Notes under the pieces: model-generated
Databases searched by the model: none
Seen by the model: the letters and a program-made list of their open reading frames with translations, nothing else
What the model was told of the DNA's origin: nothing
Shown: in pieces, positions 29,895-64,000 of the stretch
Position numbering within the stretch: the stretch's first letter is position 1
Layout: each line of letters opens with the position of its first letter
Made by a program: the position numbers and the translations under genes
DNA from: Sideroxydans sp.
GTDB taxonomy: Bacteria; Pseudomonadota; Gammaproteobacteria; Burkholderiales; Gallionellaceae
DNA length: 64,000 nucleotides
Direction: 5' to 3'
Assembly: GCA_041665725.1 (NCBI GenBank)
Contig: JBAYIG010000002.1
Span: 31,085 to 95,084 of the forward strand

Positions 29895-32122
<2,228 letters not shown>

Positions 32123-48548: not shown

Positions 48549-48740
48549 GATAGGTATTCGATCATTATATGGAAAAACTCATATTGTCCTAGCCGATGAC
48601 CAGTTGCTGGAGCAGCAAGGAATGCTTACGTTGATTGCCATACTGCCGCAATATGAAGCCATCGTTGGGTGCGCTAAGGGAAGAGCGCCGCGAAATCAGC
48701 ATAGGAGGCTAGCGCAAAATCTCGCGGTGATATCTAGAAG

Positions 48741-49287: not shown

Positions 49288-49323
49288 TATGTAAACTATT
49301 TTTTTGATTGATCTGAAGAACGA

Positions 49324-50190: not shown

Positions 50191-50513
50191 GCACTCCTGT
50201 ACAGAATCACTTGATTGAACAACTTTGCCAACATTGGATCAGTTAGGTCGGCACCAGAAAATATCTCCATGACACGATTGGCCACCTTAGCCACATCGAC
50301 TGCCACTTGTTCTGGCACTCGCGAATCAGGTTCAACGATAAAGATGTATTCGGCTTGATATGTGCTGAGTTGTCGGATGTCTAGCTCAGTCAGAATAGCG
50401 CCCTCTTTTAAAGATAAGCGTAGGATTCCGTGATTCACGACATTCACATCTGCCCCTAAGGTCATGCCGGGCTCTGCTTCAATAATGGTAATGAAACGAG
50501 TTCTGTTTCTCAT
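50187..50513 (-). CDS. Stand-alone small domain resembling the N-terminal module of HD-GYP/HDOD proteins
   Basis: 108 aa, AGGAGG SD. EAEPGMTLGADVNVVNHGILRLSLKEGAILTELDIRQL fits the L-x-PGM-x-L-x-x-DV ... G-x-x-LT-x-x-x-I-x-x-L pattern I recall from N-termini of HD-GYP proteins. Confidence 0.6.
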   Translation of the reverse strand: MRNRTRFITIIEAEPGMTLGADVNVVNHGILRLSLKEGAILTELDIRQLSTYQAEYIFIVEPDSRVPEQVAVDVAKVANRVMEIFSGADLTDPMLAKLFNQVILYRSA

Positions 50514-50530
50514 TATTCCATCCTCCTGTT

Positions 50531-51025
50531 CTAGCTCAGCGAGCTGCCATCTTGAGAGGCAGTTGATGAAGACTGAGCGTTCAAGTCTAATTTTTCGTTA
50601 ATGACGAAGGCCATCACTTCCACTTGTTCTATGATTGCGGAGGTCAGATTGCTTCTAGTTCCATCATCATATTGTTGCGTCAGCAGTAATTCGGTGAAGC
50701 CATAGATACTCGCAAGCGGAGCTCGAAGTTTTTCAGCAATCTGCTTCATGTCATATTCCTGACGTGTCACTCTTCTCCGAACATAGTGAATCGCTCGGAT
50801 GCAACCACTGGCAACATCAACCCGAAGATGATCAATCACTGGGAGATCAAGCTGAAAGATAAAGTCTGCTTCGCTCATACCGATAAAACTAGATCTCGAC
50901 ATTCCAATGCATCGCTCGAATGACGGACTCACTGAACATACATTGCCTTCTCTATCGATGGCCACTATGCCCCAAGGGGAATGATTCCACGCCATCTCCA
51001 TCGCTAACGTATCAGTCGTTTTCAC
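50531..51025 (-). CDS. PAS plus DHp (HisKA-like) stub lacking the phospho-acceptor His and the ATPase domain
   Basis: PAS-like N-terminal half (GIVAIDREGNVCSVSPSFERCIGMS), then QIAEKLRAPLASIYGFTELLLTQ. The neighbouring kinase has AAHELRTPMASIYGFSELLLNQ at this position, so His is replaced by Glu. The protein ends about 60 aa later. A GTGA overlap with the REC gene is the likely start (TTG 51037 and ATG 51001 are also possible). Confidence 0.7.
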   Translation of the reverse strand: MKTTDTLAMEMAWNHSPWGIVAIDREGNVCSVSPSFERCIGMSRSSFIGMSEADFIFQLDLPVIDHLRVDVASGCIRAIHYVRRRVTRQEYDMKQIAEKLRAPLASIYGFTELLLTQQYDDGTRSNLTSAIIEQVEVMAFVINEKLDLNAQSSSTASQDGSSLS

Positions 51026-51396
51026 GCTTCTCTCCAAAGTAATGCATCATGCAAATGCTTTTCAAGTGCCGCCGGGCTAAAGGGTTTAACGAAATATGCG
51101 TCCGCTCCAAGCGCTCTTCCTTGTTCCTGATCTGATACCTGACCACAAGCAGTCACTAGAATCACATAGATACCTGACAGCCGGTCGCTTTGCTTGATGT
51201 GTTCACATAGCTGGAATCCAGACATACTCCCGGACATCATCACATCCAATATGATGGCGTCCGGAAGCGAGTTATTAATAGATTTCAATGCGGAATTCGC
51301 ATCCTTAGCCTCTGAGACTTCAAATCGATCTCTCAATGCCAAACGCACCACCGTGCGGATATTCTCTTGATCATCTACAACAAGGACTTTCTTCAT
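51022..51396 (-). CDS. Single-domain response regulator (CheY-like), copy 1
   Basis: MKKVLVVDDQ..., LDVMMSGSMSG (acceptor Asp), VTACGQ, YFVKPFSP. Confidence 0.9.
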   Translation of the reverse strand: MKKVLVVDDQENIRTVVRLALRDRFEVSEAKDANSALKSINNSLPDAIILDVMMSGSMSGFQLCEHIKQSDRLSGIYVILVTACGQVSDQEQGRALGADAYFVKPFSPAALEKHLHDALLWREA

Positions 51397-51706
51397 TTGC
51401 GTATCTTTACAATTAAGGTTGAGCGACTACTGGAAATCCATCTTTGAATTGAGCGGCGACTTCATAGAACTTGTGTTGAAATGAGACTTGCTCCTCATCG
51501 TGGTTGAATCACCACCACCTTTCACCACGAGCTCTCCTAGTGTCGTTCCATAGAGTGCCGTCTGTGCTCGATTCCACAACAAGAACTTACCGTTCCAATC
51601 CTTACATCAGGATGACGCTCTAATTTTCATCAATCACGGTTCTTAAAAGGGCGCTCCCTCTTGTCAATTCCACTTTGATATCGACGTTTTGATTGCTCAT
51701 TCTTTC

Positions 51707-53758
51707 TCAAATTTGTTCAGCCAATAACGAGGCTGTTCCCGAAACAAGCAAACTATCGTTAGCAACTGCCGTATCAATGGGTATCCAGATTGTCACCGCT
51801 GTTCCTTTACCTATTTCACTTTCAATCCCTATGCTGCCGCCATGAAGTTCGACGATCTCCTTCACGATGCACATTCCCAAACCTGTCCCGCTAATCTTTC
51901 CTGAGGTGTCGGCACGATAGAACCGATCAAAGACATGAGACAGTTGCTCAGAAGTCATGCCGATTCCCGCATCAACGATTTTGACCCCCACCATCTCACT
52001 TGCTTGAGTACTTTGTGATTGAACCAGTTCAATGGTTACCTCACCGCCCATAGGAGAATATTTGTATGCGTTTGAGACGATATTGTTCAATACCTGAATG
52101 AGCTTGCTCCTGTCCGCTCGTGCCAAGACAGGTTGATTACCCTGCAGTAATTTTGGAGGTGTACGCCCATCTGGGGGCACATAACCTCTCATGACATCCC
52201 GAATCAGATCGATGATATTGATTGATGTGATCTCGAAGTCTTGGCCTCTTTTTGATTCGATGCGTGCAAGATCCAAGAGCTCATTGATGATTGAAATCAT
52301 CAGAACCGACTGTTTATATATCGTTTCAACCAGCTCCTGCTGCTCTTCCGCACTGAATGATTGGTTCAGTAAAAGTTCAGAGAATCCATAGATGGAGGCC
52401 ATCGGAGTTCGCAATTCATGTGCTGCTGTAGACAGGAACTCGCTCTTCATGCGATCCACTTCATTTTCATGTGTGATATCGCGAAAGTACAAAAGGACTG
52501 AAATCGTCTCTGAATCTGACTCACGAATCCCGACTTCTACTACTTTCCTTGAGGTGAGAATTTCGAACTTTTGGCACGGATTCTTTGGTTTGTTTTCTTC
52601 TACATTTTGCATCGCTCTAAGAGCTGCGATACCACAGAATCTGGATTGGGGGGTACACAGGCCGGATATTAGTTGTGTGAATTCTGATTCACCAAGACCG
52701 ATGACCGAATGAGCATCCAATCCTGTGATAATTTCAAATGTAGGATTCACGTATTTAACATAACCGTCCTTGCAAAAGGAAACGACAGCGTCCGGGCTCA
52801 GCGAACAGATGGCCCTCAATTGTTCTGTTTTGTGCATTTCAGACAAGTCTGAAAATACGCCGATATAACTCAACACACTCCCAGTCTCATCCTTCACTGA
52901 AGTAACACAAAGCCACTGCGGGTAGTCTCTACCCGTTTTGGTTTTGTTGTGGATCATGCCTACCCAAGTGCCCGTGTCTTCCAATGACTTCCAAAAGTTG
53001 TGGTAGAAGTCAATGGATTGCATGCCTGATTGCAGGAATCGTGGATTGCGTCCTATTGCTTCTTCTGCACTGTAACCTGTGATATTTGTAAAGGCGGGGT
53101 TGACCGCCCTAATCTCTCCATCAACATCTGTGATCATCACCCCCTCACTCACATTATTGAGTACTTCTGATGAGATCCGACTTTCAAATTCCCTTTCTCG
53201 GAGATGCGTGATGTCTTGGATGAGCCAATAGAAGGTCAAATCCTTGGTATCTCCAACACGGATGACCTGCCCAGAAGCAATCATCATCCCCGCCTTGCTA
53301 CGCTGGCTCACAAAATGAAGTTCGCACGCAGGCTCTATGGCCCCGTCCGCCATATTCATTCTCGCGACCTCCAGCATCTGCAAGAGTTTCCCGCGATGAG
53401 ATTGCAGGACAAAATCGACCAGCCTTCCGCCAACTAGCCGGTCAATTTTGTCAATTGCCTCTGATGATGAACTGACCTGTAGGATGCCCCCATCCCGGTC
53501 CGTCAAGATGTGGATATCTCTGGATATTCGCATCAAAGAATTTAGTTCTTCTCTGCTTTGCAAGAGCTGCTCACTAGACGCTAGCAATTCCTGATAATTC
53601 GTGGTCAGCTTTTCATTACGCTCGATCATTTGTTGCAAATCTTCTGCATACCTAAAAAGTTGATTGTGTAGCTCGACGCCACGATCCCCCCCTGGTATTC
53701 GCAATGACTGTCCATTCGCTAAGATAGGCTTCATACCTTTGTCTGCGAAATAATTCAT
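51707..53758 (-). CDS. Cytoplasmic multi-PAS sensor histidine kinase
   Basis: 683 aa with no TM segment. Coiled-coil N-terminus, about three PAS domains (e.g. GVMITDVDGEIRAVNPAFTNITGYSAEEAIGRNPRFLQSG), H-box TAAHELRTPMASIYGF, N-box NNIVSNAYKYS, G-boxes DAGIGM and GTGLGM. Confidence 0.92.
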   Translation of the reverse strand: MNYFADKGMKPILANGQSLRIPGGDRGVELHNQLFRYAEDLQQMIERNEKLTTNYQELLASSEQLLQSREELNSLMRISRDIHILTDRDGGILQVSSSSEAIDKIDRLVGGRLVDFVLQSHRGKLLQMLEVARMNMADGAIEPACELHFVSQRSKAGMMIASGQVIRVGDTKDLTFYWLIQDITHLREREFESRISSEVLNNVSEGVMITDVDGEIRAVNPAFTNITGYSAEEAIGRNPRFLQSGMQSIDFYHNFWKSLEDTGTWVGMIHNKTKTGRDYPQWLCVTSVKDETGSVLSYIGVFSDLSEMHKTEQLRAICSLSPDAVVSFCKDGYVKYVNPTFEIITGLDAHSVIGLGESEFTQLISGLCTPQSRFCGIAALRAMQNVEENKPKNPCQKFEILTSRKVVEVGIRESDSETISVLLYFRDITHENEVDRMKSEFLSTAAHELRTPMASIYGFSELLLNQSFSAEEQQELVETIYKQSVLMISIINELLDLARIESKRGQDFEITSINIIDLIRDVMRGYVPPDGRTPPKLLQGNQPVLARADRSKLIQVLNNIVSNAYKYSPMGGEVTIELVQSQSTQASEMVGVKIVDAGIGMTSEQLSHVFDRFYRADTSGKISGTGLGMCIVKEIVELHGGSIGIESEIGKGTAVTIWIPIDTAVANDSLLVSGTASLLAEQI

Positions 53759-53765
53759 ATGGACC

Positions 53766-54131
53766 TCACTCAGCCAATGTTTCTTTAATCGCTGTTACAA
53801 GTTGAAGTGGGCTGAACGGCTTGATGAAATACTCCTCGGCCCCTCGATTCAAGCCATTCTCATAGTCGCTCACCTGCCCTCTTGCAGTAACCATAATTAC
53901 GTGGATATGCTTTAGCTCAGCATCGCTCATGATGCTATCCAAGACTTTGAGCCCATCCATATTCCCTGGCATCATGACGTCTAGGACTACCAGATCCGGC
54001 TTCTCGCTCCGAATTATTTTCAGACTGGTTTCTCCATCCTCGGCTTCCAACACTTCGAATCCATTACCCAAGGTGATACGTATCAGCCTGCGAATATCTG
54101 AATGATCATCAACGATTAACACCTTCTTCAT
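53766..54131 (-). CDS. Single-domain response regulator (CheY-like), copy 2
   Basis: MKKVLIVDDH..., LDVMMPGNMDG, VTARGQ, YFIKPFSP. ATGA overlap with the upstream HTH-REC gene. Confidence 0.9.
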   Translation of the reverse strand: MKKVLIVDDHSDIRRLIRITLGNGFEVLEAEDGETSLKIIRSEKPDLVVLDVMMPGNMDGLKVLDSIMSDAELKHIHVIMVTARGQVSDYENGLNRGAEEYFIKPFSPLQLVTAIKETLAE

Positions 54132-54793
54132 ACAACCTCCCGAGAGCGCAACTTCCTACGATTTTCAACCAGCCCATCCGCAATCATTCGCAACTGATCA
54201 AATTGAACAGGCTTGTGGAATAAAGGGATACCCCAAGGTATGCCTCCGCGCCTTGCAATCTCCTCCGCATCAAGACCGCTTACGACAACAATGCTGATCT
54301 CAGCCAACTCAGGCATTCGCCTGATCGTGTAGAGCATACGAAACCCATCCATGCCGGGCAGATTCAAGTCAGCCACCAACATATCCGGCTTAATGCTTCC
54401 GATTCGAATAAGTGCTTCGTATCCATCAGTAGCAGTCGCAACATTGATTGGTGGTTGCCATTCGCTAAACTTGATCTCATAGAGTCGACATAACGCAGAG
54501 TCATCCTCCACAACGAGAATATCTAATGGCTCGATTTGAACGTCCGCCCTATGACTATCCTTGATGCGATGAATCTGAGGTACAACCGAGGAATCAGCGA
54601 CAAGCGATTTTGCAAGCAATTGATCCACCGATCCCCTATCGATCCTTCTATGCCCACCTTTTGTCTTCCATGCATATAACAGTCCGCTATCAACCCATAA
54701 CTGCGCGGTTCTAAGCGATACTGAAAGTGCTTTTGCTGCTTCTCTAGTGGTACAAAATGTCTTACGAGCTTGTTGGTTATGTTTCAGTTTCAC
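54128..54793 (-). CDS. Response regulator with N-terminal excisionase/MerR-type HTH (HTH_17) and C-terminal REC
   Basis: TTREAAKALSVSLRTAQLWVDSGLLYAWKTKGGHRRIDRGSVDQLL (HTH_17 pattern), then ILVVEDDSALCRL...VADLNLPGMDG. No ATG near the 5' end, so GTG 54793 behind GGAAGGGGGAGGA is preferred over TTG 54808. Confidence 0.8.
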   Translation of the reverse strand: MKLKHNQQARKTFCTTREAAKALSVSLRTAQLWVDSGLLYAWKTKGGHRRIDRGSVDQLLAKSLVADSSVVPQIHRIKDSHRADVQIEPLDILVVEDDSALCRLYEIKFSEWQPPINVATATDGYEALIRIGSIKPDMLVADLNLPGMDGFRMLYTIRRMPELAEISIVVVSGLDAEEIARRGGIPWGIPLFHKPVQFDQLRMIADGLVENRRKLRSREVV

Positions 54794-54905
54794 TCCTCCC
54801 CCTTCCAAAAGAGAAACCTAATTTATTACAAAGAATATCATTTATTATCTTTTTGTGTCATTTAATTCTTTTTTAAATCAGTTTTATAGGGATTATTAGA
54901 CTGGA

Positions 54906-54932
54906 TATGAGATATCAGATTGATATCTCATA
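54906..54932. promoter_or_regulatory. Perfect 12-bp inverted repeat upstream of the signalling operon
   Basis: tatgagatatca (54906-54917), gat, tgatatctcata (54921-54932). About 110 nt upstream of the HTH-REC start, in very AT-rich DNA. Confidence 0.4.
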
Positions 54933-54994
54933 GATCGTGTTTCATTTTTTGCTCTGTCTTGGGTTGCACTTCCCAATTTGTCGGATGACGTCGA

Positions 54995-55210
54995 GATGGA
55001 TATGTATGAAGTTGCCGAAGGAGGAAACATAGGAACGTTAGCGCAACACCAAAGATGGTGTCGATGTAAATGAAGTGAGTCGTGATGGCGATACAGCCCT
55101 TCACTATGCAAGCAAGACAAGCGAGGTGAGCCTGTCAAGCATCAAGTACTCATTGAGGTGGAGGCAGGTGTTAATCCCATCGGCAGAAAAGGCAACTCTC
55201 AAATGCCATG
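54995..55210 (+). pseudogene. Ankyrin-repeat gene fragment with frameshifts
   Basis: Plus-strand frames read ...EVAEGGNIGTLAQHQ / DGVDVNEVSRDGDTALHYASK (GDTALHYA at 55087-55110) / GEPVKHQVLIEVEAGVNPIGRKGNS. These are ankyrin consensus pieces (G-TALH-A, GA-VN) spread over three frames, with stops and no start. Confidence 0.45.
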
Positions 55211-55370
55211 AAATGCTTCTCTCCGAGTTGCTTTGACTGATGCAATGTGAACGCTCAGCAAAGCTGAAATAAAATCAGAATGGTTGTATTACCTACAGGC
55301 ATGCCCTTGACGTATGTAGGTACCACCAGCAGTTCAGGCCAAGCGGATGTCGTTCAAATTGTTTGCGTAG

Positions 55371-55988
55371 CTACGTTTTATTGTTCAGTTCTTGGAGTGA
55401 ATCTTTTACAACTTGTACAGATGAGCGCAGGAAGAGTACGGCGAGTGCCAAGCCCACCAAGATGTCCGGCCATCCTGAATGAGTGAGCCATACACCGAAA
55501 GCAGCGAACAACACTGAGACGTTCGCAACAATGTCATTGCGCGAACACAGCCAGACAGAACTCATGTTGATGTCATCCGCGCGGTGTCGCCATAGCAAGT
55601 AAATACACAAGCTGTTCGCGGCCAGTGCCATCAGGCCGATCAATCCGATAGTCTCGAACACTGGGATTTGTGGATAGACGATGCGGTAGATCGCTTGGCA
55701 CAGTACGAAGAACCCGAATCCCGCCATGATGATTCCCTTGAGCAGCGCAGCCTTGGCTTTCATGGTGACGCCGCGCGCTACGACATACAGACTGAAGCCG
55801 TACACCAACGCATCGCCAAGCATGTCCAGCGAATCCGCTACCAGTGAGACCGAGTTTCCGAGCAGCCCCGCCGTGAGTTCGACGATGAACATGACCGCAT
55901 TGATCGCCAGCACGATCTTGAGCGTTGCGCTTTGACGACTGCGCAGCGCGTCAATCTCACAGGCTTTGTCGTTGCAACAATCGGACAT
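55371..55988 (-). CDS. Cation diffusion facilitator (CzcD/ZitB-like) metal exporter
   Basis: Cys-rich N-terminus MSDCCNDKACE, TM2 motif SLVADSLDMLGDA. About 205 aa with six TM segments and no long C-terminal domain. ATG 55988 with SD GGAGGA. The 44-codon extension in the track would overlap the desulfurase gene and is rejected. Confidence 0.8.
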   Translation of the reverse strand: MSDCCNDKACEIDALRSRQSATLKIVLAINAVMFIVELTAGLLGNSVSLVADSLDMLGDALVYGFSLYVVARGVTMKAKAALLKGIIMAGFGFFVLCQAIYRIVYPQIPVFETIGLIGLMALAANSLCIYLLWRHRADDINMSSVWLCSRNDIVANVSVLFAAFGVWLTHSGWPDILVGLALAVLFLRSSVQVVKDSLQELNNKT

Positions 55989-55999
55989 AAAGTCCTCCG

Positions 56000-57139
56000 C
56001 TAGTGACGCAAAATTTTGACACTCTTTGATATCTCCGCCGCGGCGACTTCGATCTCTTCCTGTGTCGTCATAATTCCCACCGAAAATCTGACAGCTCCGC
56101 GCGCACGCCCCGCATCGCATCCCATCGCCGCCAAGACGCCACTCACTGAGTCTGCCTCGGAATGGCAGGCCGATCCCACTGAGGCAACAACTTGGTCGGC
56201 GACGCGGGACAGCAGTTCGCGCCCTGAGATGTCCGGAAAGGAGATGTGCAAGGTGTTGGGTAGGCGCTCGACCGGATGGCCGTTGAGCACTAGACCGGGA
56301 ACGGTTGCGGTGAGTCGTTCATGCAGAGTGTCCCGTAGCTTCTGCAATTTCTGCGTCGTGGCGGGAAGCTGTTTTCGTGCAAGTTTTGCAGCTTCACCCA
56401 GGCCTACGATCAGCGGAACGTTCTCGGTGCCCGGCCGCAAACCATGCTCCTGATCAGCTCCATACAGAATCGGTTTGATCGGTGTTCCTGATCTGACATA
56501 CAGCGCGCCCACGCCTTTGGTGGCATAGAACTTGTGGCCTGCCAAGGTCAGCAGATCAACATCCAGCGCATCGACATCGATCTCGATCTTGCCAGCCGAC
56601 TGCGCTGCATCGGTGTGAAACAGTACACCCATCGGCTTGATGAGGCGCGCAATCTCGGTGATGGGTTGAAGCGTTCCGACTTCGTTGTTGGCGTGCATGA
56701 TCGACACCAGCGCCGTATCGGGTCGCACAGCTGCGGCAACAGCATGGGGATCGACGCGGCCGTAGCTATCCACCGGTACCACGGTCAAATCCCAACCCGT
56801 CTCGCGCAGGTACAACGCCGGTTGCATGACTGCCGGGTGTTCAATCGCGCTAATGACAAGATGCCGCTTGGTGAGACCTAGCGCCCTTGCCACGCCGAGA
56901 AGGGCAAGATTGTTGGCCTCGGTCGCGCTTCCGGTGAAAACGATCTCGTCTGACTTGGCATGGATAAGCGCAGCGACCAATGCCCGTGCTTCGACGACGG
57001 CCTGTCGTGCAGACAAACCATACACATGTGACGATGAAGGATTGCCGAAGTACACGTCCAGAAACGGCTGGATCGCATCGGCCACATCCAGTGCGACGGG
57101 TGTGGTGGCGTTGTAATCGAGATAGATTGGCTTGTTCAT
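56000..57139 (-). CDS. Class V aminotransferase: cysteine desulfurase (NifS/IscS-like) or C-S lyase
   Basis: MNKPIYLDYNATTPV, SGATEANNLA, HANNEVGT, LAGHKFYATKGVGALYV (PLP Lys), and a C-terminal SVGSACHS loop carrying the catalytic-Cys-like residue. Confidence 0.85.
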   Translation of the reverse strand: MNKPIYLDYNATTPVALDVADAIQPFLDVYFGNPSSSHVYGLSARQAVVEARALVAALIHAKSDEIVFTGSATEANNLALLGVARALGLTKRHLVISAIEHPAVMQPALYLRETGWDLTVVPVDSYGRVDPHAVAAAVRPDTALVSIMHANNEVGTLQPITEIARLIKPMGVLFHTDAAQSAGKIEIDVDALDVDLLTLAGHKFYATKGVGALYVRSGTPIKPILYGADQEHGLRPGTENVPLIVGLGEAAKLARKQLPATTQKLQKLRDTLHERLTATVPGLVLNGHPVERLPNTLHISFPDISGRELLSRVADQVVASVGSACHSEADSVSGVLAAMGCDAGRARGAVRFSVGIMTTQEEIEVAAAEISKSVKILRH

Positions 57140-57146
57140 TTCAGCG

Positions 57147-57929
57147 CTAATCAGAATCGGCAGGGGGCATAGTCTGAGTCATCACTCGCCCTATCAATTT
57201 TCCAGAGTGGTAAACACGCAACTCCCCCGCTTCGAAGGCCGTCCACTTTCCATTTTTATCCAGAGATTCGGTTGCGATCAGAACGTTATTGCTAGTATCA
57301 AGTGAACCATCTGGGCGGTCTGAGCTTGAGTGTTCCAGATAATGCAATCGGTCATGTCCGTAGGCGATCAGGTGCTCCCCGTCCGACATCAGGAAATTGA
57401 ACTTGCCGAGCGAGGCAACCAAGCCGCTCACCACCGCCAGATTTTCAAACCAGGTGGAGGGTGCAGCGGAAGGCAAGCTATGAAAATGCTGAGCGATACT
57501 ATCGAGGAGATGGCAGAAGGCATATTCAGAGTCCGTTCTGCCGGCAGGGCAGCAGACCAAGTTGTTGCTGGATAATTCTATTTCCACGATGTCCGGCACC
57601 ATGCCGTTGTGGGCGAACACCCATTCCTTGCCGCAGCACACGCGCTGGAACGGATGGGTATTACTCATATCGATGACAGGAGGAAAGCTCGCCTTGCGCA
57701 CATGCGCGATAACCAAACTTGAGCGTGTGCTTCCGCATAGCTGTGCAAATAGCGTGCTCTGGTGCGCAGGCGTCGGCTCCTTGGCAAGGCGAAACGTGCC
57801 GTTCTCCTGCCAAGCGAGTCCCCAACCGTCAGGGTTATCTGCGGCATGGCCGCCATGCATGCGAAACTCGTTGAGCTCTTGGCTGACATCTACAGGGTAG
57901 TCGGACGATATTCCAAAGAGCTCACACAT
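57147..57929 (-). CDS. Class II (Ntn) glutamine amidotransferase, YafJ/EgtC-like
   Basis: Starts MCELFG (Cys2 nucleophile after Met removal), then NPDGWGLAW, AHVRKAS, PFQR, FAHNG. The 14-codon upstream extension is rejected. Confidence 0.8.
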   Translation of the reverse strand: MCELFGISSDYPVDVSQELNEFRMHGGHAADNPDGWGLAWQENGTFRLAKEPTPAHQSTLFAQLCGSTRSSLVIAHVRKASFPPVIDMSNTHPFQRVCCGKEWVFAHNGMVPDIVEIELSSNNLVCCPAGRTDSEYAFCHLLDSIAQHFHSLPSAAPSTWFENLAVVSGLVASLGKFNFLMSDGEHLIAYGHDRLHYLEHSSSDRPDGSLDTSNNVLIATESLDKNGKWTAFEAGELRVYHSGKLIGRVMTQTMPPADSD

Positions 57930-57939
57930 CGGTCTTCCC

Positions 57940-59067
57940 CTATCGATATTTACGCAGATACCAAGACTCAAAGAACGATTTAGCGTGATGCATCAGACTG
58001 AGCGGAGGTAAAGATAACTCTCCATCAAGCGTGCGTCGCACCATCATGCCAGCATCAAGGCTATCGACGATGCACAGCAACTCCACTTTGAAAGTCTGTT
58101 GTGGTTTTCCGCCAGCCAATTCTGTCAGCAGATTGGCTGCGGCCGTCTCGCCTTGCAGATCGGCCATGTGTGCCTGTTTGGGCATCCAGTCCGGGCCGGG
58201 AAAACTGCCGGAGTCACCGACGACATAGGTCGCTGCAAAACCTTCGACACAACACTTGGCATCGGCCTTGATGAGTCCTCCCGCTGAACGCGGCAGGCTG
58301 GTCTGGTCGAACCATGCATTGCCGGTCAGGCCGGGCATGAAGATGATGAGGTCAGCGGCGAACTCGCCGCCTTCGGTCTTCACTTTATCTGCCTCGAAGC
58401 CGACCAGTTTATTGCCGAGTTGTTTCTTGATACCGCGCTTGTCCATCTCCGCCATCAGGCGTTGTACCGCACGCTCACCGAGGCGATTGCCGGGATTGGG
58501 CATGGGGTTGAAGAAGGTGAGACCGATCTTGTCGCGGCGCCCTTCGCGGCGCAATTGTGTATCCAGTCCGAACAGGAATTCAAAGATGGGGCCTCCGCGC
58601 ATGGCGGTCGGCTCGTTTGGATTGCCCGCGAACCCCAGTGCGATGTTGCCTTGCTTGAGTGCTGCCACGCGCTCACGGATCTGCTCTGCGGCAGCGATGC
58701 CTTCGCACGGCAGGATGGCATGCTCGATGCCGGGCAACTTCTTGATGAAGCGCCCACCGCTGGCGATGATGAGACCGTCGTTCTCCACCTTGCCGTTGTT
58801 GGTCAGCACGCTACGTCCGCAGTTCTCCAAGCCGGTCGCTTCGCCCGCAAAGAAGCGGATGCGTTGTTCGTTCAGGAAGCGGTCGAGCGGGATACGCAAG
58901 TCCTCCGCCTTACGTTTGCCGGAAGGTATCCAGATCAAGCTGGGTAGAAAGATGTGTTCCGCTTTGGGCGCGATGAGGGTGATCTCGACACCCGCATCGA
59001 GTTGGCGCAATTTACGCGCCGCAGACAGCGCGGCAAAACCCGCACCGATGATGGAAATCTGTTTCAT
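57940..59067 (-). CDS. FAD-dependent pyridine-nucleotide-disulfide oxidoreductase, sulfide:quinone oxidoreductase/NDH-2-like
   Basis: MKQISIIGAGFAALSAARKL (GxGxxA dinucleotide fold), second Rossmann segment IALGFAG, GDSG near the C-terminus. 375 aa. ATGA overlap with the MFS gene. Confidence 0.75.
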   Translation of the reverse strand: MKQISIIGAGFAALSAARKLRQLDAGVEITLIAPKAEHIFLPSLIWIPSGKRKAEDLRIPLDRFLNEQRIRFFAGEATGLENCGRSVLTNNGKVENDGLIIASGGRFIKKLPGIEHAILPCEGIAAAEQIRERVAALKQGNIALGFAGNPNEPTAMRGGPIFEFLFGLDTQLRREGRRDKIGLTFFNPMPNPGNRLGERAVQRLMAEMDKRGIKKQLGNKLVGFEADKVKTEGGEFAADLIIFMPGLTGNAWFDQTSLPRSAGGLIKADAKCCVEGFAATYVVGDSGSFPGPDWMPKQAHMADLQGETAAANLLTELAGGKPQQTFKVELLCIVDSLDAGMMVRRTLDGELSLPPLSLMHHAKSFFESWYLRKYR

Positions 59068-60371
59068 GCTTTAACTCCTGATGATTGCGGATTGATACGC
59101 GGATGCGTCTCAGCACCGAACAGCCAAAGTATAGCCCCCGATATGAACATCGAGATCGCCACGAACCAGAACGCCGCATCGACCGAGCCGCTGAAATGCG
59201 CGGCGATACCCAGTCCGAGTGCGCCGATGCCGTAGCCGAGGTCACGCCAAAAGCGGTAGATACCGATGGCCGAGCCACGCCAGTTGGGGTGAGAGATGTC
59301 GGCGATCGCTGCCGAAAGGTTCGGATACAGCAGCGCCATGCCAAAACCAGAAACGGCAGCGGACAGCGACCACCATGCCATGCCTTCACCCATCAACATC
59401 AGCGCCACGCCCGCACCACAGACCCACATGCCAAGCACGTTTGGGATGTGGCGGCCGATGTGGTCGGAGAGTTTGCCGGTGAAAAATTGCGAACCTCCCC
59501 ACACGAATCCATACACACCAACGATCCAGCCGATGTCGGGCAGGCTGATGCCTCGCTGGTAAAGAAACACAGGATAGAACACCCACACCAGTGCATCGAC
59601 GAACTTCTCCACCAGTCCGGCCTGGCTGATGGCGGCGAGACGTTTGTCGCGCCACGACACCAGCGTGAACACTTCCCACGTCGTTGGCTGTGCACTGATG
59701 TTGGTCGGGTAGCGCGCCAGCGGCCCCGTGTTGATGCCCGCTTTATGTTTTGCAGCCTCACTCTTCGCCCACGGCAGCGTGTCCTTGACCCACAACAGGG
59801 TGAGCAACATGGCCAGCAAGATCGTCGTCATACCGAACAGCAGCAGCCCACTGCGCGGCCCAAGCATGGTCGCTAGGTAAGCGGTGATGATGCCCGCCAG
59901 CGCCAGCCCGACATAGCCGGAGAATTCATTGAGGCCGATGGTGAGGCCGCGCTGGTCGGCGCGCGTGATGTCCAGCTTTGAGGTCTGCGTCATCGACCAG
60001 GTCAGTCCCTGATTGATACCGAGCAGCACCGTCGCCGCCACGATCCAACTCCACGAAGGCGCAAAATAGACCAGCAAGGGAATGGGCAGTGCCGCAGCCC
60101 AACCTAGCAGTAATACCTTCTTGCGACCGATGCGCTCAGACAAGCGTCCTGCCACGAAATTGAGCGTGCCTTTGACCAAGCCGAACGCCACCACGAACGC
60201 GGTGAGCAACATGAAGGAGTTCTTCGGCACACCGAATTCAGATTCGGAAAGTGCGGGCACCACGGTGCGCATCATGCCGATGGTGAAACCCACCAGCATG
60301 ACTTGCAGCAGTTGATGCAGGAACTGGGCTAGGTTAGCGCGGATGCCGTGGGTCAAATCGCCCTGCATCAT
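59064..60371 (-). CDS. MFS transporter
   Basis: About 12 TM segments. GRLSERIGRKKVLL-type motif A between TM2 and TM3. The ATG overlaps the MBL TGA by 1 nt. Confidence 0.85.
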   Translation of the reverse strand: MMQGDLTHGIRANLAQFLHQLLQVMLVGFTIGMMRTVVPALSESEFGVPKNSFMLLTAFVVAFGLVKGTLNFVAGRLSERIGRKKVLLLGWAAALPIPLLVYFAPSWSWIVAATVLLGINQGLTWSMTQTSKLDITRADQRGLTIGLNEFSGYVGLALAGIITAYLATMLGPRSGLLLFGMTTILLAMLLTLLWVKDTLPWAKSEAAKHKAGINTGPLARYPTNISAQPTTWEVFTLVSWRDKRLAAISQAGLVEKFVDALVWVFYPVFLYQRGISLPDIGWIVGVYGFVWGGSQFFTGKLSDHIGRHIPNVLGMWVCGAGVALMLMGEGMAWWSLSAAVSGFGMALLYPNLSAAIADISHPNWRGSAIGIYRFWRDLGYGIGALGLGIAAHFSGSVDAAFWFVAISMFISGAILWLFGAETHPRINPQSSGVKA

Positions 60372-61102
60372 CAACCTGCCAAGTTCGCAGCGACCATCTT
60401 GTCCATCTCAGCTGGGCGCGGCGGGATTTCCTTTAGCAGATTTTCCACGAAGGCATCCTTGCTCATAGACAGTGCCTGATTCCAATGCTTCTCGAATCCG
60501 ATGGTCGAACTGGGTTTGCCGGACAATCCCGCACCGCAAACGCTACCTGCCTGATGTCCCGGGAATATCTCAACCTCATTGGACAGATGCAACAGCTTGG
60601 AATGGATGCTGTCGTAGAGTTGTGCGGACATTTCCTTCTCGCGCCCCAGCAGGTCGGGACGACCGATCGATCCAACGAATAAGGTATCACCGGTAAGAAC
60701 GAACCAAGGCAACTCCCCGCGACGCATGTCGGTCACCAACAGACAGATGCTGTCAGGCGTATGGCCGGGGGTGTGTAATACCTCGACATTGACGTTGCCT
60801 AGATTGAGCGATTGACCGTCGACCAAAGATTCAAAGTCGAATTTCACGCGACCTTTATTCGATTCGTGCAAGCAATAAGGCGCTCCAACCATCTGCGCCA
60901 GCTTTCTGCCGCCGGAATAATGGTCGGCATGAACGTGGGTGTCGATGACGTAATTGATGGTGACACCCGCTTTATTCGCTTCCTCGATGTACCACACCTC
61001 ATCACCCGCGACCACATCCACCGCCATGGATTTGCCCTTGGTGCCACAGCCGAAGAAATACGAAAGTGAAGACTCTTTTGTGGGTAGTTGTTTGAAGAAC
61101 AT
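60371..61102 (-). CDS. MBL-fold metallo-hydrolase (persulfide dioxygenase / Blh-like)
   Basis: VIDTHVHADHYSGG (HxHxDH), HTPGHTPDS, TGDTLF. Start at MFFKQL (ATG 61102, SD GGGAG). The longer track ORF is rejected. Confidence 0.85.
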   Translation of the reverse strand: MFFKQLPTKESSLSYFFGCGTKGKSMAVDVVAGDEVWYIEEANKAGVTINYVIDTHVHADHYSGGRKLAQMVGAPYCLHESNKGRVKFDFESLVDGQSLNLGNVNVEVLHTPGHTPDSICLLVTDMRRGELPWFVLTGDTLFVGSIGRPDLLGREKEMSAQLYDSIHSKLLHLSNEVEIFPGHQAGSVCGAGLSGKPSSTIGFEKHWNQALSMSKDAFVENLLKEIPPRPAEMDKMVAANLAG

Positions 61103-61130
61103 TGCTCGCTCCCTAGTTATCAGTTGATTG

Positions 61131-61481
61131 TTAAAACACCAGAACCTTGTCAGCCCACACCGTCCACTCCGCCAATTCGGCCAAGGTGCTGCGGTGCGTC
61201 TTGTCGGCAATATCGCTTTCACCCATACCACGCGCATCCATGCAGGTGCCGCAGATGCCGACCTCTCCACCGTGGCGAACCACATTGCCGATCATCGTTT
61301 CGACGTTGTAGAAACCCGGTGGCACTTTTTGGTTGCGGTGTGCCGACGAAGCTCCGTCGCCAATCAAAAATATGCGTACTGCATTGCCTTCCATTTTGGA
61401 AACGGCACCCGCCAAACGTAGGCCGTTATAGGTGCGCTCGCTTCCGTATGGGCCATCGTTGAGGATATAAAGGTGATTCAT
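61131..61481 (-). CDS. DsrE/TusD-family sulfur-carrier-like protein
   Basis: 116 aa. MNHLYILNDGPYGSER..., VRIFLIGDG, conserved Cys loop ICGTCMDARG. SD AAGGAGG. Confidence 0.8.
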   Translation of the reverse strand: MNHLYILNDGPYGSERTYNGLRLAGAVSKMEGNAVRIFLIGDGASSAHRNQKVPPGFYNVETMIGNVVRHGGEVGICGTCMDARGMGESDIADKTHRSTLAELAEWTVWADKVLVF

Positions 61482-61498
61482 GGCGACCTCCTTGGTTG

Positions 61499-61530
61499 TT
61501 ATTCATTCTAGTATTTGCTGGAATGATTAA
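61499..61530. promoter_or_regulatory. Candidate ArsR-type operator in the divergent promoter region
   Basis: TTATTCATTC (61499-61508), 12-nt spacer, GAATGATTAA (61521-61530). The arms are 9/10 complementary. Located 18 nt upstream of the dsrE-like ATG. Confidence 0.4.
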
Positions 61531-61603
61531 GCCCCATCTGTCATTTCATGTCAAGATAATCTATAGTGCATGGCATACGCTCCAGCCAATGATGGATTAA
61601 CAA

Positions 61604-62254
61604 ATGAAAGACGCGCGCAAGATCAAAGACCTGTTGTATGAGCAGGTGTCACGGATAGGCAAAGTATTCTCCAGCCCCAAGCGGTTGGAACTGATCGAAC
61701 TGCTTTGTCAGGGAGAGAAGACAGTTGAGATGTTGGCGAGCGAAGCCTCGATCAGTGTGAAACTGACCAGTTCGCATTTGCGCGAGTTGCGCATGGCACA
61801 TCTAGTAGAGACCGAGCGACAGGGCAAGAACATCTATTACCGCCTTGCCAATAAATCGGTGGCCGACTTATGGGTGCAGATCCATACTCTAGCCGAAGAC
61901 CGATTGATCGAGCTGCAACTGGCATTACAGAAGATCGCCACACGACCCGATGATCTGGTGCCGAGTGACCGCGAGAACCTGATGAAGGCTGCGCGCAAAG
62001 GAGAGGTGGTGGTTCTCGATGTCAGACCCAGCGAGGAATATTTGAATACGCATCTGCCGTTCGCTCGCTCCATCCCTCTAGATGAACTACGCCAGCGATT
62101 ATCGGAATTGCCGAAAGACCGTGCGATCGTCGCCTACTGTCGCGGACCATACTGCCTGATGGCCATCGATGCTGTGACGCTGCTCAAGCAAGAGGGGTAT
62201 TCAGCCGTTCATTTGCGGGACGGTGTGGCTGAATGGGCTAGCACGCGCACCTAA
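61604..62254 (+). CDS. ArsR/SmtB-family regulator fused to a rhodanese domain
   Basis: N-terminal SSPKRLELIELLCQGEKTVEMLA...AHLVETERQGKNIYYRL (ArsR wHTH). C-terminal VLDVRPSEEY...AYCRGPYC (rhodanese active-site loop). Confidence 0.85.
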   Translation: MKDARKIKDLLYEQVSRIGKVFSSPKRLELIELLCQGEKTVEMLASEASISVKLTSSHLRELRMAHLVETERQGKNIYYRLANKSVADLWVQIHTLAEDRLIELQLALQKIATRPDDLVPSDRENLMKAARKGEVVVLDVRPSEEYLNTHLPFARSIPLDELRQRLSELPKDRAIVAYCRGPYCLMAIDAVTLLKQEGYSAVHLRDGVAEWASTRT

Positions 62255-62302: not shown

Positions 62303-63400
62303 TCACGCATTCCCGATCCCGCGCGTCGGCAGATTGATCTGCTTGGCAAAGTCGAGCATGCGTTGTATGGGCTTCACTGCGCGCGGGATGATGTTCGCGT
62401 CGATGTGTATCTCGTTGTGTCCGCGCTCTAACACTTCCGCCAGATTGATCAATCCATTCATCGCCATCCACGGGCAGTGACTGCAACTCTTGCAGTTCGC
62501 ACCATTGCCCGCTGTGGGCGCTTCGATGAAGGTTTTGTGCGGACACAGCGTACGCATCTTGTGCAGGATGCCATTGTCGGTAGCGACGATGAACACGTTG
62601 GCATCCAAGGTCTGTGCCGCCTTGATGAGCTGCGATGTGGAACCCACGACATCCGCCAGCTTGACGATGGCGCGTGGCGATTCTGGATGCACCAATACTT
62701 TGGCGAGTGGATGCTGCGCCTTCAACTCGATCAATTCTTTGGATTTGTATTCGTCATGCACGATGCATGAGCCTTGCCATAGCAACATGTCGGCCCCCGT
62801 CTGCTCTTGGATGTAATTACCTAGATGACGATCAGGCGCCCACAATATCTTCTCACCGCGTTCCTTCAGATGCTTGACGATGGGTAAAGCGATGGAACTG
62901 GTCACCATCCAATCGGCGCGAGCCTTCACGGCGGCGCTAGTGTTGGCATACACGACGACGGTGCGATCAGGATGTGCGTCGCAGAAAGCAGTGAACTCGT
63001 CATCTGGACACCCCAAGTCGAGCGAACATTCCGCCTCAAGGTCGGGCATCAGCACGCGCTTCTCAGGGTTCAATATCTTCGCGGTCTCGCCCATGAAGCG
63101 CACACCGGCGACGACGATGGTCTTAGCAGGATGACGATGGCCGAAGTTGGCCATATCGAGTGAGTCTGAAACGATGCCGCCTGTTTCTTCTGCGAGGTCT
63201 TGCAGGTCAGGATGTACGTAGTAATGCGACACCAGCACTGCGTCCTGCTCTTTCAGCATGCGCTTGATACGTTCGATCAACTCGGCCTTCTCACCAGCCT
63301 CGGGTTCGCGCGGCTTCTTCGCCCAGGCATGGGCGGTGCTGCAACTCGCTTGCGCAGTGTCGGGGTGGTCGTAGTCGATGGTGATGATGATGTTAGACAT
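62303..63400 (-). CDS. nadA: Quinolinate synthase
   Basis: [39 protein letters not shown], and a C-terminal [11 protein letters not shown] motif. Start at MSNIII (ATG 63400). Confidence 0.92.
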
Positions 63401-63842
63401 GCTGGATTCTTTCTGGCAGTTGCAGTATCGCCTCACGATTGCTGGGCGAGAAGACTTTATCTGCTGCCTCTAGGTAAGGCAACCATTGATAGTTCAGATG
63501 TTCGCGCGGAGAGATTCGGATAGGCATCGGCTGCGGTAGTTGCAGGCCAAACACATGCTCTGTGTTCTGAGTGACGCCTTCAGGGTAACGATGGCGCCAG
63601 TGCGGATAGATCTCGTAACTATTTTGCCACTGCCAATCGGTGAGATCGAACTGCGTTGCATCCAAGCCAGTCTCTTCTGATGCCTCGCGGATGGCAGTCT
63701 CGCGTAAGATCTCGACACCATCACGACTACCCGTCACTGATTGCCAATAATCGGGATGGTCGGCACGTTCCAGCAGGAGCACTTCAAGTGCGGAGGTGTA
63801 AATGACAACCAGTACGGAGATTGGCTGTTTGTCTCTTGGCAT
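63393..63842 (-). CDS. nudB: NUDIX hydrolase (dihydroneopterin triphosphate pyrophosphatase-like)
   Basis: Nudix box [23 protein letters not shown]. Start at [13 protein letters not shown] (ATG 63842) overlaps the upstream TGA. 8-nt overlap with nadA. Confidence 0.75.
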
Positions 63843-64000
63843 CAAGCGAAGAAGACCCAGAAAGGTTTGCCTTGCATCCGCCAAAAATCGACGGTGGCAT
63901 TGAGGATATCGTCCAAGATGGCTTCGCCCGTATGCTCACCGCGTAGCAGTAAGACATAACCCGGTGCCTTGTTCCAGGAGAGGTCGCCGAGCGCATCGGC
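63842..64000 (-). CDS. 3' end of an unidentified gene running off the window
   Basis: The minus frame is open from nt 64000 (ADALGDLSWNKAPGYVLLLRGEHTGEAILDDILNATVDFWRMQGKPFWVFFA*), with TGA at 63844-63842 overlapping the NUDIX ATG. Not in the ORF track because it has no start in the window. Confidence 0.5.
   Translation of the reverse strand, partial: ADALGDLSWNKAPGYVLLLRGEHTGEAILDDILNATVDFWRMQGKPFWVFFA

Follow-up and report, generated by a model that had tools for sequence, protein, structure and literature searches.

To our knowledge, the sensing of sulfide and persulfide in bacteria is now explained by three types of repressor and activator, namely CstR, BigR/SqrR and FisR. In this study, we compared these systems with a divergent locus of the iron oxidiser Sideroxydans sp. 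(Gallionellaceae), which lies in a stretch of 64,000 nucleotides (positions 31,085 to 95,084 of contig JBAYIG010000002.1, assembly GCA_041665725.1; hereafter the window) and in which seven minus-strand genes stand opposite a gene for an ArsR-type regulator with a fused rhodanese domain. Our comparisons indicate that the core of this locus is a widespread, mobile operon type under a candidate new class of sulfane-sulfur sensor, to which the Sideroxydans version appears to add a family of enzymes derived from sulfide:quinone oxidoreductase (SQR).

In the regulon CstR-cstA-cstB-sqr of S. aureus, a repressor of the CsoR family that senses sulfane sulfur and has an inter-subunit Cys pair controls a persulfide dioxygenase (PDO), sulfurtransferase and carrier proteins and a flavoprotein of the SQR type. 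The Sideroxydans locus has a like set of parts, with a regulator that would likewise sense sulfane sulfur. The locus is also like BigR-Blh of Xylella and Agrobacterium and SqrR of Rhodobacter in its ArsR-fold repressor, its sulfur dioxygenase and its palindromic operator, the operator in the window being putative. According to PMC5823870, the BigR-Blh system places a sulfur dioxygenase under an ArsR-fold repressor, and its relatives have a sulfite exporter in addition. The sensory Cys pair of BigR and SqrR, which lies in helices alpha2 and alpha5, forms an intraprotomer polysulfide bridge (PMC10054925). SDO1 of A. caldus (A5904_0421) is a stand-alone metallo-beta-lactamase-fold (MBL) protein of 245 aa from the 'SdoS' subgroup with a sulfur dioxygenase activity that depends on glutathione (GSH). 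In vitro it oxidises glutathione persulfide (GSSH) with a Km of 267 uM; SdoS-type proteins are found mainly in autotrophs, and a dsrE-like gene lies close to SDO1 (PMC5584763). A Rhodococcus cluster of PDO-rhodanese, SQR and rhodanese genes is induced during the breakdown of organic thiols and is adjoined by a putative sulfite exporter gene (PMC5157978).

The Sideroxydans locus comprises the following genes, given in operon order with the divergent regulator gene last.

61131-61481, minus strand: DsrE-family gene (PF02635 (DsrE), 77.7 bits; 116 aa)
60371-61102, minus strand: MBL-fold gene (243 aa; HVHADH at residues 56-61)
59064-60374, minus strand: major facilitator superfamily (MFS) gene (Pfam MFS_1, 159 bits; 434-436 aa)
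57940-59067, minus strand: Pyr_redox_2 flavoprotein gene (Pfam Pyr_redox_2, 65.4 bits; 375 aa)
57147-57929, minus strand: GATase_4 gene (Pfam GATase_4, 190 bits; 260 aa; N-terminal Met-Cys)
56000-57139, minus strand: Aminotran_5 gene, class I cysteine desulfurase (Pfam Aminotran_5, 258 bits; 379 aa)
55371-55988, minus strand: Cation_efflux gene, cation diffusion facilitator (CDF) (Pfam Cation_efflux, 80 bits; 205 aa)
61604-62254, plus strand: HTH_5 + Rhodanese regulator gene (Pfam HTH_5, 33.4 bits; Rhodanese, 50.2 bits; 216 aa)

All eight genes were confirmed by the list of open reading frames and by Pfam and NCBIfam models, in the arrangement that a preliminary description of the window had given them, i.e., seven minus-strand genes separated by -4 to 28 nt under a divergent regulator. 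In operon order the intergenic gaps measure 28, -4, -4, 10, 7 and 11 nt, and the divergent spacer between the regulator gene and the DsrE gene is 122 nt long. Gene starts agree with independent gene calls on identical contigs, the sole exception being the MFS gene, which differs by 1-2 codons; its start is ambiguous between a TTG at 60374 and an ATG 1-2 codons later. A promoter and terminator scan found no terminator-like site in any gap of the seven-gene operon, a scan in which the number of such sites (9, against 7.1 expected) was at chance level. The GC content of the operon (0.53-0.59) is the same as the window average of ~0.55. The layout argues strongly for co-transcription of the seven genes, and the last three are assigned to the same transcript because of the gaps of only 7-11 nt that separate them from the genes before them.

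The regulator consists of an N-terminal ArsR/SmtB winged helix and a C-terminal rhodanese domain with the active-site loop C179-R-G-P-Y-C184, in which the catalytic Cys is the first of six residues. It had been taken for a thiol-sensing ArsR relative of the BigR/SqrR kind, and this assignment has to be withdrawn. The protein fails the BigR equivalog model NF040642 (46.2 bits, cut-off 155), its alpha5 region is without Cys, and C35, the one Cys of its ArsR domain, is shared by 17 (15%) of 112 members of the family, which are ~35-58% identical to it. Among these 112 members no ArsR-domain Cys is kept in ≥85%, and no conserved CxC was found in helix 3. The loop Y-C179-R-G-P-[YF]-C184 is conserved in the same set, with C179 in 94% and C184 in 88% of members, and C179 is invariant in a 45-sequence regulator alignment. 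Compared with BigR and SqrR, the regulator therefore carries its conserved Cys pair in the loop of the fused rhodanese domain and not in alpha2 and alpha5; compared with CstR, it is an ArsR fold fused to a rhodanese. By its residues it is not a BigR/SqrR-type sensor, and since the BigR/SqrR Cys pair is absent, sulfur sensing, if any, would have to proceed via the rhodanese loop.

This architecture is common. A scan of 1.84 billion representatives returned 289 clusters (50% identity) at E <= 1e-30, mostly of 210-240 aa and matching end to end, and HTH_5 + Rhodanese is the architecture of all of the 120 best-scoring homologues listed. In a PDB search the best solved relative of the ArsR part is a 108-residue fragment (2kko/3gw2), presumably the N-terminal part of a mycobacterial Rv0324-type protein that itself has a rhodanese domain; the rhodanese half is closest to 1yt8 and to Bacillus BH2092, the loop of which reads CWGPAC. 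The preliminary description had placed the rhodanese fusion outside the known paradigms. It is indeed absent from the characterised systems, but it is no rarity, given the 289 clusters and its occurrence on 198 plasmids and in metagenome cassettes. The regulator's rhodanese domain also has 8-16 separate matches within each of several giant proteins of 1197-2327 aa (P0241, P0247, P0280, P0305), which look like tandem arrays of this rhodanese subtype.

The regulator passes the NCBIfam HTH_metalloreg model (70.4 bits, cut-off 55), and the locus can also be read as a metal or metalloid resistance operon, with the ArsR/SmtB protein as the sensor of a thiophilic metal or metalloid, the CDF and MFS proteins as its exporters and the sulfur enzymes there to mend collateral thiol damage. 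The rhodanese cysteines could then be the ligands, as a CxxxxC pair could chelate soft metals. We consider this reading unlikely, due to the lack of a conserved helix-3 CxC in the ArsR domain and to the poor conservation of the candidate helix-5 ligands D88, H94 and E98, none of which is kept in ≥85% of the 112 members; the gene neighborhoods that bear on it are given below.

The divergent spacer contains a putative operator and two putative promoters.

61499-61530, no strand: putative operator, inverted repeat 13-6-13 (inverted-repeat search)
61501-61528: operator core 8-12-8, AATCATTC-N12-GAATGATT, overlapping the -10 region of the operon promoter
61526-61554, minus strand: putative sigma-70 promoter of the seven-gene operon, with -35 TTGACA at 61549-61554 and -10-like CTTAAT at 61526-61531
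61538-61567, plus strand: putative regulator promoter, CTGTCA, 18 nt, TATAGT; weak (consensus scan, 9/12 matches)

The -10 element CTTAAT of the operon promoter was read by eye and was not called by the promoter scan. TTGACA is invariant in all 13 aligned divergent spacers from Gallionellaceae and Rhodocyclales, and the palindrome is kept in the same 13 spacers ~17-19 nt downstream of it; the TATAGT of the regulator promoter (ACTATA on the other strand) is partly kept in the spacers of relatives. Within the window the operator pattern has a single site with <=1 mismatch (61501-61528, 1 mismatch), and the other match, with 3 mismatches inside the desulfurase gene, is at chance level. A search of regulator-anchored metagenome loci (480 kb in all) gave 6 sites of the motif with <=2 mismatches, all of them with the 12-nt spacing and 40-105 nt upstream of a regulator gene, and none elsewhere. 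No fetched locus contains a perfect match to the exact pattern. As sites with <=2 mismatches are confined to closer relatives, the half-site has diverged across the wider regulator family. An operator that overlaps the promoter is the signature expected of a promoter-blocking ArsR-type repressor, to which the regulator would bind here; where regulator and target genes are co-directional, the regulator would also autoregulate.

The first three genes of the operon form its core together with the regulator gene. The DsrE protein matches E. coli YchN (1jx7) over its full length (E 6.6e-21), with C77-G-T-C80 aligned to the C-K-T-C of YchN, and falls below the TusD and TusC equivalogs (24.6 and 20.2 bits, cut-offs 89.25 and 94.15), which assigns it by similarity to the YchN type, not to TusD or to DsrE proper. 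The best PDB matches of the MBL protein are the N-terminal MBL domains of 3r2u (144.7 bits, E 3.3e-41), which we take to be S. aureus CstB, and of 3tp9 (141.9 bits, E 2.5e-40), an Alicyclobacillus MBL-rhodanese protein; matches to the PDOs 4ysb, 2gcu and 4chl (ETHE1 among them) are weaker at 60-67 bits, as is that to glyoxalase II 1qh3 at 48 bits. The metal-ligand motifs HVHADH (56-61), HTPGHT (110-115) and GDT (138-140) are identical in 3r2u and 3tp9. The 3r2u chain has 466 aa and presumably carries rhodanese domains, whereas the window protein is the 243-aa MBL domain alone, without a C-terminal rhodanese domain. Its score against the Blh model is 57 bits, with a cut-off of 625. We conclude that it is probably a PDO of the CstB/SdoS type that lacks the rhodanese part. 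With its DsrE-like neighbor it is like A. caldus SDO1, also a stand-alone MBL protein of ~245 aa with a dsrE-like gene nearby, a likeness in size, domain content and neighbor gene; PMC5584763 names no regulator and no MFS gene for SDO1. The parallel with persulfide-detoxification regulons that the preliminary description had drawn is upheld by the nearness of the MBL protein to the PDO domain of CstB, and by the relatives with canonical SQR and TauE that are described below.

In the cassettes of metagenomes and plasmids alike, the MBL gene has the MFS gene after it, and this tight coupling suggests that the MFS protein removes the product of the dioxygenase. In one related locus (L093), an MFS gene overlaps the gene for a regulator 42% identical to that of the window, and its product is 38.6% identical to the window MFS protein over the full length.

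To see how far the core recurs, 80 metagenome loci were fetched via the 45-sequence regulator alignment and searched for partner genes with a tblastn panel. Partners were counted in the 48 loci of >=4 kb, and the counts are lower bounds because many loci are incomplete. DsrE was found in 19 of 48 loci, the same MFS type likewise in 19/48 and MBL in 17/48, followed by a second SQR-like type of 383 aa with both redox Cys (6/48), NifS-like genes (6/48), Cys_Met_Meta_PP genes (2/48), TauE (1/48) and an SQR of canonical type (1/48). The genes added in relatives are those for a canonical two-Cys SQR, further SQR-like proteins, rhodanese, pyridoxal phosphate (PLP) enzymes for Cys/Met and, in some related operons, TauE of the sulfite exporter family. 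Due to the CstB-like MBL protein and the related operons with canonical SQR and TauE, the view of the locus as a reactive-sulfur regulon is well supported.

Regulator matches are also present on 198 plasmids, and the cassette is annotated on several plasmids from cultured bacteria. An Azotobacter salinestris plasmid carries regulator, DsrE, MBL, MFS, rhodanese and methyltransferase genes, a Burkholderia thailandensis plasmid carries regulator, DsrE, MBL and MFS genes, and a Hydrogenophaga plasmid has regulator, MBL, MFS and rhodanese genes. Divergent MBL-MFS pairs occur on plasmids of Rhodococcus jostii RHA1 and Acidiphilium multivorum, and the R. jostii MBL protein of 454 aa has room for a fused extra domain. 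The plasmid cassette genes all bear generic product names. Since the core recurs both in metagenomes and on these plasmids, it is a common and mobile operon type; the preliminary description had considered that the cluster might turn out to be common and already characterised, and the first half of this applies to the core, while no paper on the regulator-DsrE-PDO-MFS core and no characterised member of it was found in the literature. To judge from its partners, the theme of the core is thiol and sulfane-sulfur chemistry.

The regulator has other partners in lactic acid bacteria. Among others, matches lie on 45 Lactiplantibacillus and 32 Leuconostoc plasmids, and on the Lactiplantibacillus plantarum plasmid CP140147.1 (4995-9516) the regulator heads genes for thioredoxin, TrxB, DsbA, thioredoxin and an FAD oxidoreductase. 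In this lactic acid bacterium operon, and hence in bacteria of food and gut, the candidate sensor family would have a different output. In a Rhodocyclales version of the operon, a conserved protein of 186 aa with no Pfam match is encoded between DsrE and a TlpA-like redoxin (L089:5709-6269).

The company kept by the plasmid cassettes bears on the metal reading introduced above. Several of them are embedded in regions of resistance to mercury, arsenic or chromate (genes of the mer, ars and chr types) near transposases, and it seems that the cassette moves together with such metal and metalloid resistance islands. On the plasmids of Hydrogenophaga sp. BPS33 and Burkholderia thailandensis (L177, L179), it stands beside an arsenic resistance gene, chrA and merTP; also near it on these two plasmids are a SUMF1/EgtB-family gene with senB (for selenoneine biosynthesis), a gene for a GDCCVxC (seleno)protein and Tn3/integrase genes. 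Across the relatives, however, the constant partners are the PDO-like MBL and DsrE genes and not metal pumps, and it is SQR and TauE that join the regulon.

The senB and GDCCVxC genes near the plasmid cassettes, together with SAM methyltransferases that recur in related loci, also raise the prospect of a selenium or tellurium system, composed of a selenocysteine lyase, a rhodanese and DsrE protein that carry selenium, a selenium-reducing flavoprotein and volatilising methyltransferases in related loci. We regard such a system as very unlikely. Matches to selenium-linked models exist for TsoR (56.8 bits), SQR_III_seleno (76.7), Nterm_to_SelD (46.8) and SclA (126), but all are far under the curated cut-offs; selD, selA and selB were not detected within the operon, the selenium genes of the plasmids lie outside the cassette, and the sulfur-specific partners PDO, SQR and TauE dominate.

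The near-complete gene order of the window was found only in Gallionellaceae and in unclassified contigs of metagenome-assembled genomes, often with SHOCT, second MFS, methyltransferase or TauE genes in or near the tail, and none of these near-complete relatives is known to carry all eight genes. The genes that follow the core are considered one by one below, starting with the flavoprotein.

Like the SQRs of Aquifex (3hyv), A. ferrooxidans (3sxi/3t2z) and Acidianus (3h8i), the flavoprotein has a FAD fold with two dinucleotide-binding domains and the flavin-side Cys, and matches them at E 1e-16 to 1e-19. It differs from them in having Arg157 for the partner redox Cys, an extra invariant Cys272, a shorter chain and an identity of only ~21-23%. 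Its motif RGGPIFEF, in which the lack of the SQR redox Cys had been noticed by eye with some reserve, places Arg157 opposite the redox Cys of C-x-GP-x-x-E in HMMER alignments with the Acidianus, Aquifex and A. ferrooxidans SQRs, and a MAFFT alignment with Aquifex SQR gives the same result (Cys156 to Arg157), so that the reading is now secure. Arg157, Cys121, Cys272 and Cys332 are invariant in 81 distinct homologues. Cys332 lies opposite the flavin-side redox Cys (Aquifex Cys347); Cys121 lies opposite a Cys of the Acidianus and Aquifex (Cys124) enzymes by HMMER, a match that MAFFT shifts by a few columns, and the Aquifex Cys124 and its Acidianus counterpart are presumably the FAD-linking Cys. 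Lys297 and the GP-x-x-E residues are also kept. SQRs are fixed in the membrane by C-terminal amphipathic helices that also make up the quinone site; the first of these helices is present in the window flavoprotein, with its Lys363 and Phe366 positions. With 375 aa the protein ends ~35-55 residues short of SQRs, residue 375 being opposite residues 393-404 of SQRs of 409-437 aa. The sole SQR model that it matches is SQR_III_seleno, at the above 76.7 bits against a cut-off of 525. Foldseek with an AlphaFold2 model, built from a shallow alignment of 23 sequences, gave TM-scores of 0.63-0.69 to SQRs at ~21-23% identity, which supports the SQR/NDH-2 fold class only.

Relatives of the flavoprotein occur in >=558 stretches of a one-genome-per-species scan, i.e., in at least that many, and the 80 loci that we kept, 62-93% identical, come from Gallionellaceae, Rhodocyclales, Thiothrix, Thiolinea, Marichromatium, Sedimenticola and Solemya symbionts. 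Neighborhood genes in these loci were called with a crude longest-ORF (open reading frame) caller that yields antisense artefacts in GC-rich loci (cluster C3). In Sulfuritalea the gene order is regulator | DsrE, a canonical 433-aa SQR with both Cys, a NifS-like gene and the flavoprotein gene, and one Gallionella locus has an extra two-Cys SQR-like gene; because it shares an operon or locus with a true or two-Cys SQR, the flavoprotein is not redundant with SQR. Its gene adjoins a NifS-like gene in Sulfuritalea and other Rhodocyclales, and a Cys_Met_Meta_PP gene (2-nt gap) in two loci (L089/L090) and also in a third (L018), an adjacency to PLP genes that spans Rhodocyclales and Nitrosomonadales loci. 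In Thiothrix and relatives (L039, L042, L044, L046, L066, L078), it is directly downstream of an OsmC-like gene and cysS, the latter identified from its sequence. Cysteinyl-tRNA synthetase has been reported to make cysteine persulfide, and the adjacency could also be coincidental. In Thiolinea the flavoprotein gene adjoins an apparent L-serine dehydratase gene, again read from its sequence. The Gammaproteobacteria neighborhoods showed no conserved partner of the flavoprotein gene beyond cysS and the OsmC-like gene in Thiothrix. A conserved protein of ~139 aa with no Pfam match is encoded immediately upstream of the flavoprotein gene in several Gammaproteobacteria (L084:7264-7683).

A possible working analogy for a one-Cys SQR-like flavoprotein is offered by enzymes of the CoA persulfide reductase (CoAPR) type. 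These have one flavin-proximal Cys in the N-terminal part and take a persulfide from a second thiol or a rhodanese, using NAD(P)H, and CoAPR belongs to a persulfide regulon. The Enterococcus CoAPR (8a56) and the Pyrococcus CoA persulfide reductase (4fx9) are of the same superfamily, with a weaker fold match (TM ~0.6), and the second nucleotide-binding segment of the window flavoprotein, read by eye, looks SQR-like and not NAD(P)H-like. Our best guess, and the least secure of our assignments, is that the flavoprotein acts as a sulfane-sulfur oxidoreductase with one cysteine and depends on an external donor, either a thiol or a persulfide. A literature search on SQR-like proteins that lack cysteines yielded nothing useful.

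Compared with the cst regulon, the flavoprotein is one redox Cys short, and nothing in that regulon corresponds to the MFS, GATase_4, desulfurase and CDF genes. The GATase_4 protein has Cys2 as its N-terminal nucleophile (Ntn) and matches PA1307 (1te5) at E 1.4e-28; EgtC structures match only residues 27-112 (E 8e-06), and the score against the EgtC equivalog TIGR03442 is 66.7 bits with a cut-off of 218.65. In most of the Gallionellaceae loci that are long enough to show what comes after the flavoprotein gene, the GATase_4 gene is the next one. The desulfurase has the PLP Lys203 in a GHK motif (from residue 201) and the catalytic Cys325 in GSAC (from 322), both aligned to 9wep, and PDB desulfurases match it at E 1e-80 to 1e-93; it remains below the equivalogs NifS (423.6 bits, cut-off 530.75), DndA (393.3, cut-off 480) and IscS (352, cut-off 643.2). 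NifS-like genes adjoin regulators only 48-56% identical to that of the window, and due to this recurrence beside distant regulators the desulfurase can be regarded as a genuine, optional member of the regulon. The amidotransferase, desulfurase and metal exporter had been described as appended to the operon and foreign to known systems; for the desulfurase this view has to be given up. The flavoprotein, GATase_4 and CDF genes are lineage-specific accessories, here mainly of Betaproteobacteria.

The tail could also be a separate system that merely abuts the operon, devoted to Fe-S assembly, to DNA phosphorothioation (DndA/SspA) or to an ergothioneine-type thiol cofactor (EgtC with EgtE), seeing that the PADLOC models for DndA and SspA give the desulfurase 466 and 460 bits and that EgtC and EgtE belong to the GATase_4 and Aminotran_5 families. 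We give this little credence, since no nifU/iscU, dndBCDE, sspBCD, egtB or egtD was present among the Pfam-labelled genes within 10 kb on either side, the EgtC score is as low as stated above and that for EgtE is 58.9 bits against 400, the tail genes begin 7-11 nt after their predecessors, and NifS-like genes recur inside regulator-anchored cassettes. As a defence-system gene the desulfurase was rejected, the partner genes being absent within 10 kb.

The CDF protein scores 83.0 bits against TIGR01297 (cut-off 82.35), over profile positions 3-198 of 285, and consists of the membrane domain only, without the C-terminal cytoplasmic dimerisation domain. Its N-terminus has the motif C4-C5-x4-C10, and further motifs are D-S-L-D (52-55) and C148-S-R-N-D152. 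The canonical CDF transport site is composed of H/D-xxx-D and H-xxx-D; D-S-L-D and C-S-R-N-D presumably sit where CDFs carry the transport-site residues, with C148 at the His position of helix 5. The motifs are kept in 4 homologues of 53-84% identity, one of which is encoded directly after a regulator gene (L137). Cys148 would suggest a soft-metal or unusual substrate. A CDF with a Cys motif in the operon, and another next to a regulator gene, speak for a metal resistance operon, but among the other fetched loci the CDF was found in four only, three of Betaproteobacteria type and L137.

The combination of a GATase_4 protein with Cys2 and a class I desulfurase is also compatible with a catabolic route for glutathione, gamma-glutamylcysteine or cysteine and not a stress response, with the regulator sensing a persulfide intermediate. 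The Ntn hydrolase would free cysteine, the desulfurase would strip its sulfur, and the flavoprotein and dioxygenase would produce sulfite for export or assimilation. The flavoprotein gene is found beside NifS-like or cystathionine-lyase-like PLP genes, cysS (Thiothrix) and the apparent L-serine dehydratase gene (Thiolinea), and the Rhodococcus PDO/SQR cluster is induced by organic thiol catabolism (PMC5157978). In spite of this we think the catabolic route rather unlikely, as the core cassette widely occurs without hydrolase, desulfurase and flavoprotein, and the operon has neither a dipeptidase nor a glutathione uptake system. Furthermore, Sideroxydans is an autotroph with no obvious need for growth on thiols.

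We favor a regulon for reactive sulfur, and consider it fairly probable that the operon responds in Sideroxydans to reactive sulfur species (sulfide, persulfide, polysulfide). A dimer of the ArsR-rhodanese regulator would sit on the 8-12-8 palindrome over the -10 region and repress the operon promoter. Sulfane sulfur would load the rhodanese Cys179, which probably bridges to Cys184 in the CRGPYC loop, and the resulting persulfide or tri-/tetrasulfide would lower the affinity for DNA. The derepressed core would then act as a disposal line, in which the YchN-type DsrE protein may carry persulfide sulfur, the CstB-type dioxygenase would convert a low-molecular-weight persulfide and O2 to sulfite, and the MFS protein would export the product oxyanion. 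As feeders, the Ntn amidohydrolase probably removes a gamma-glutamyl group and the class I desulfurase would make an enzyme-bound persulfide from cysteine. For the flavoprotein, with its flavin-proximal Cys332 kept and Arg157 in place of the partner Cys, the substrate is probably a persulfide on an external thiol, either of a protein or of a small molecule, which it would oxidise or reduce; it would not build polysulfide on a Cys pair of its own. The truncated, thiolate-rich CDF protein would be an accessory exporter. In function we infer a system that works like the CstR, BigR and SqrR regulons, even though it belongs to none of these classes because its regulator, dioxygenase and flavoprotein lack, respectively, their Cys pair, the rhodanese domains of CstB and Blh and an SQR Cys.

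A wider proposal is more tentative, and we would give it less than an even chance. ArsR-rhodanese proteins may form a large, unrecognised class of sulfane-sulfur sensors, in which persulfidation or bridging of CRGPYC gates DNA binding, over a mobile regulator-DsrE-dioxygenase-MFS cassette in Proteobacteria, Actinobacteria and Firmicutes; at the same time, the 375-aa Cys-to-Arg SQR-like protein may represent a new enzyme class that couples a PLP-made persulfide to the flavin/quinone pool via one intrinsic Cys and an external thiol.

Several points weigh against the reactive-sulfur interpretation. The regulator passes the NCBI metalloregulator model, the operon ends in a gene for a metal-type transporter, and several plasmid cassettes are situated in the metal resistance regions mentioned above. 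Literature searches on rhodanese-fused ArsR regulators gave nothing relevant. A family member of 36% identity neighbors only DUF2938, TetR and MFS genes, so the regulator family is not uniformly tied to sulfur enzymes; the neighborhoods of distant regulators were mostly read on contigs of 1-5 kb. The flavoprotein is without a Cys that is essential in the SQRs studied. Its AlphaFold2 model has a pLDDT of 68, with active-site loops and C-terminus at <50, and is too poor to show where Cys272, Cys332 and Arg157 lie with respect to the flavin. Outside Betaproteobacteria the context of the flavoprotein gene is variable, and its link to the pathway may therefore be local.

If the reactive-sulfur interpretation is correct, there may be a fourth and very widespread type of sensor, whose sensory part is a rhodanese enzyme domain. 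The annotation 'metalloregulator ArsR/SmtB' would then have to be read differently in thousands of genomes and on mobile plasmids. The model of the sensor is a simple one, consisting of a 32-bp putative operator and two cysteines, and the plasmid cassettes next to mercury, arsenic and chromate genes hint that the handling of sulfane sulfur and metal stress are linked. In JGI source names, the Cys-to-Arg SQR-like family routinely goes under sulfide:quinone oxidoreductase. If its members are not SQRs, the potential for sulfide oxidation is over-called in metagenomes of sulfur and iron oxidisers, and there is a new sulfur-trafficking reaction to describe.

The surroundings of the operon provide some further observations. 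Directly downstream of it lies a stretch of low GC content (48000-55500; 0.44-0.49 against ~0.55 in the rest of the window), which contains a PAS histidine kinase gene (51707-53758), response regulator genes (53766-54131 and 54128-54808, the latter HTH_17) and further signalling genes, and which may be a horizontally acquired island. Between the CDF gene at the operon end and the response regulator gene, positions 54906-54932 form a perfect palindrome with a 12-bp stem, TATGAGATATCA-GAT-TGATATCTCATA, with a T-rich tail after it; a bidirectional terminator and a site for protein binding are both conceivable. On the other side, towards and beyond the right end of the window, there are NUDIX and NadA genes (62303-63884) and then a barnase/barstar pair, i.e., a gene for a barnase-type ribonuclease (PF00545) followed by one for its inhibitor barstar (PF01337), which lies between aspS and the NUDIX gene (L001:4364-5226).

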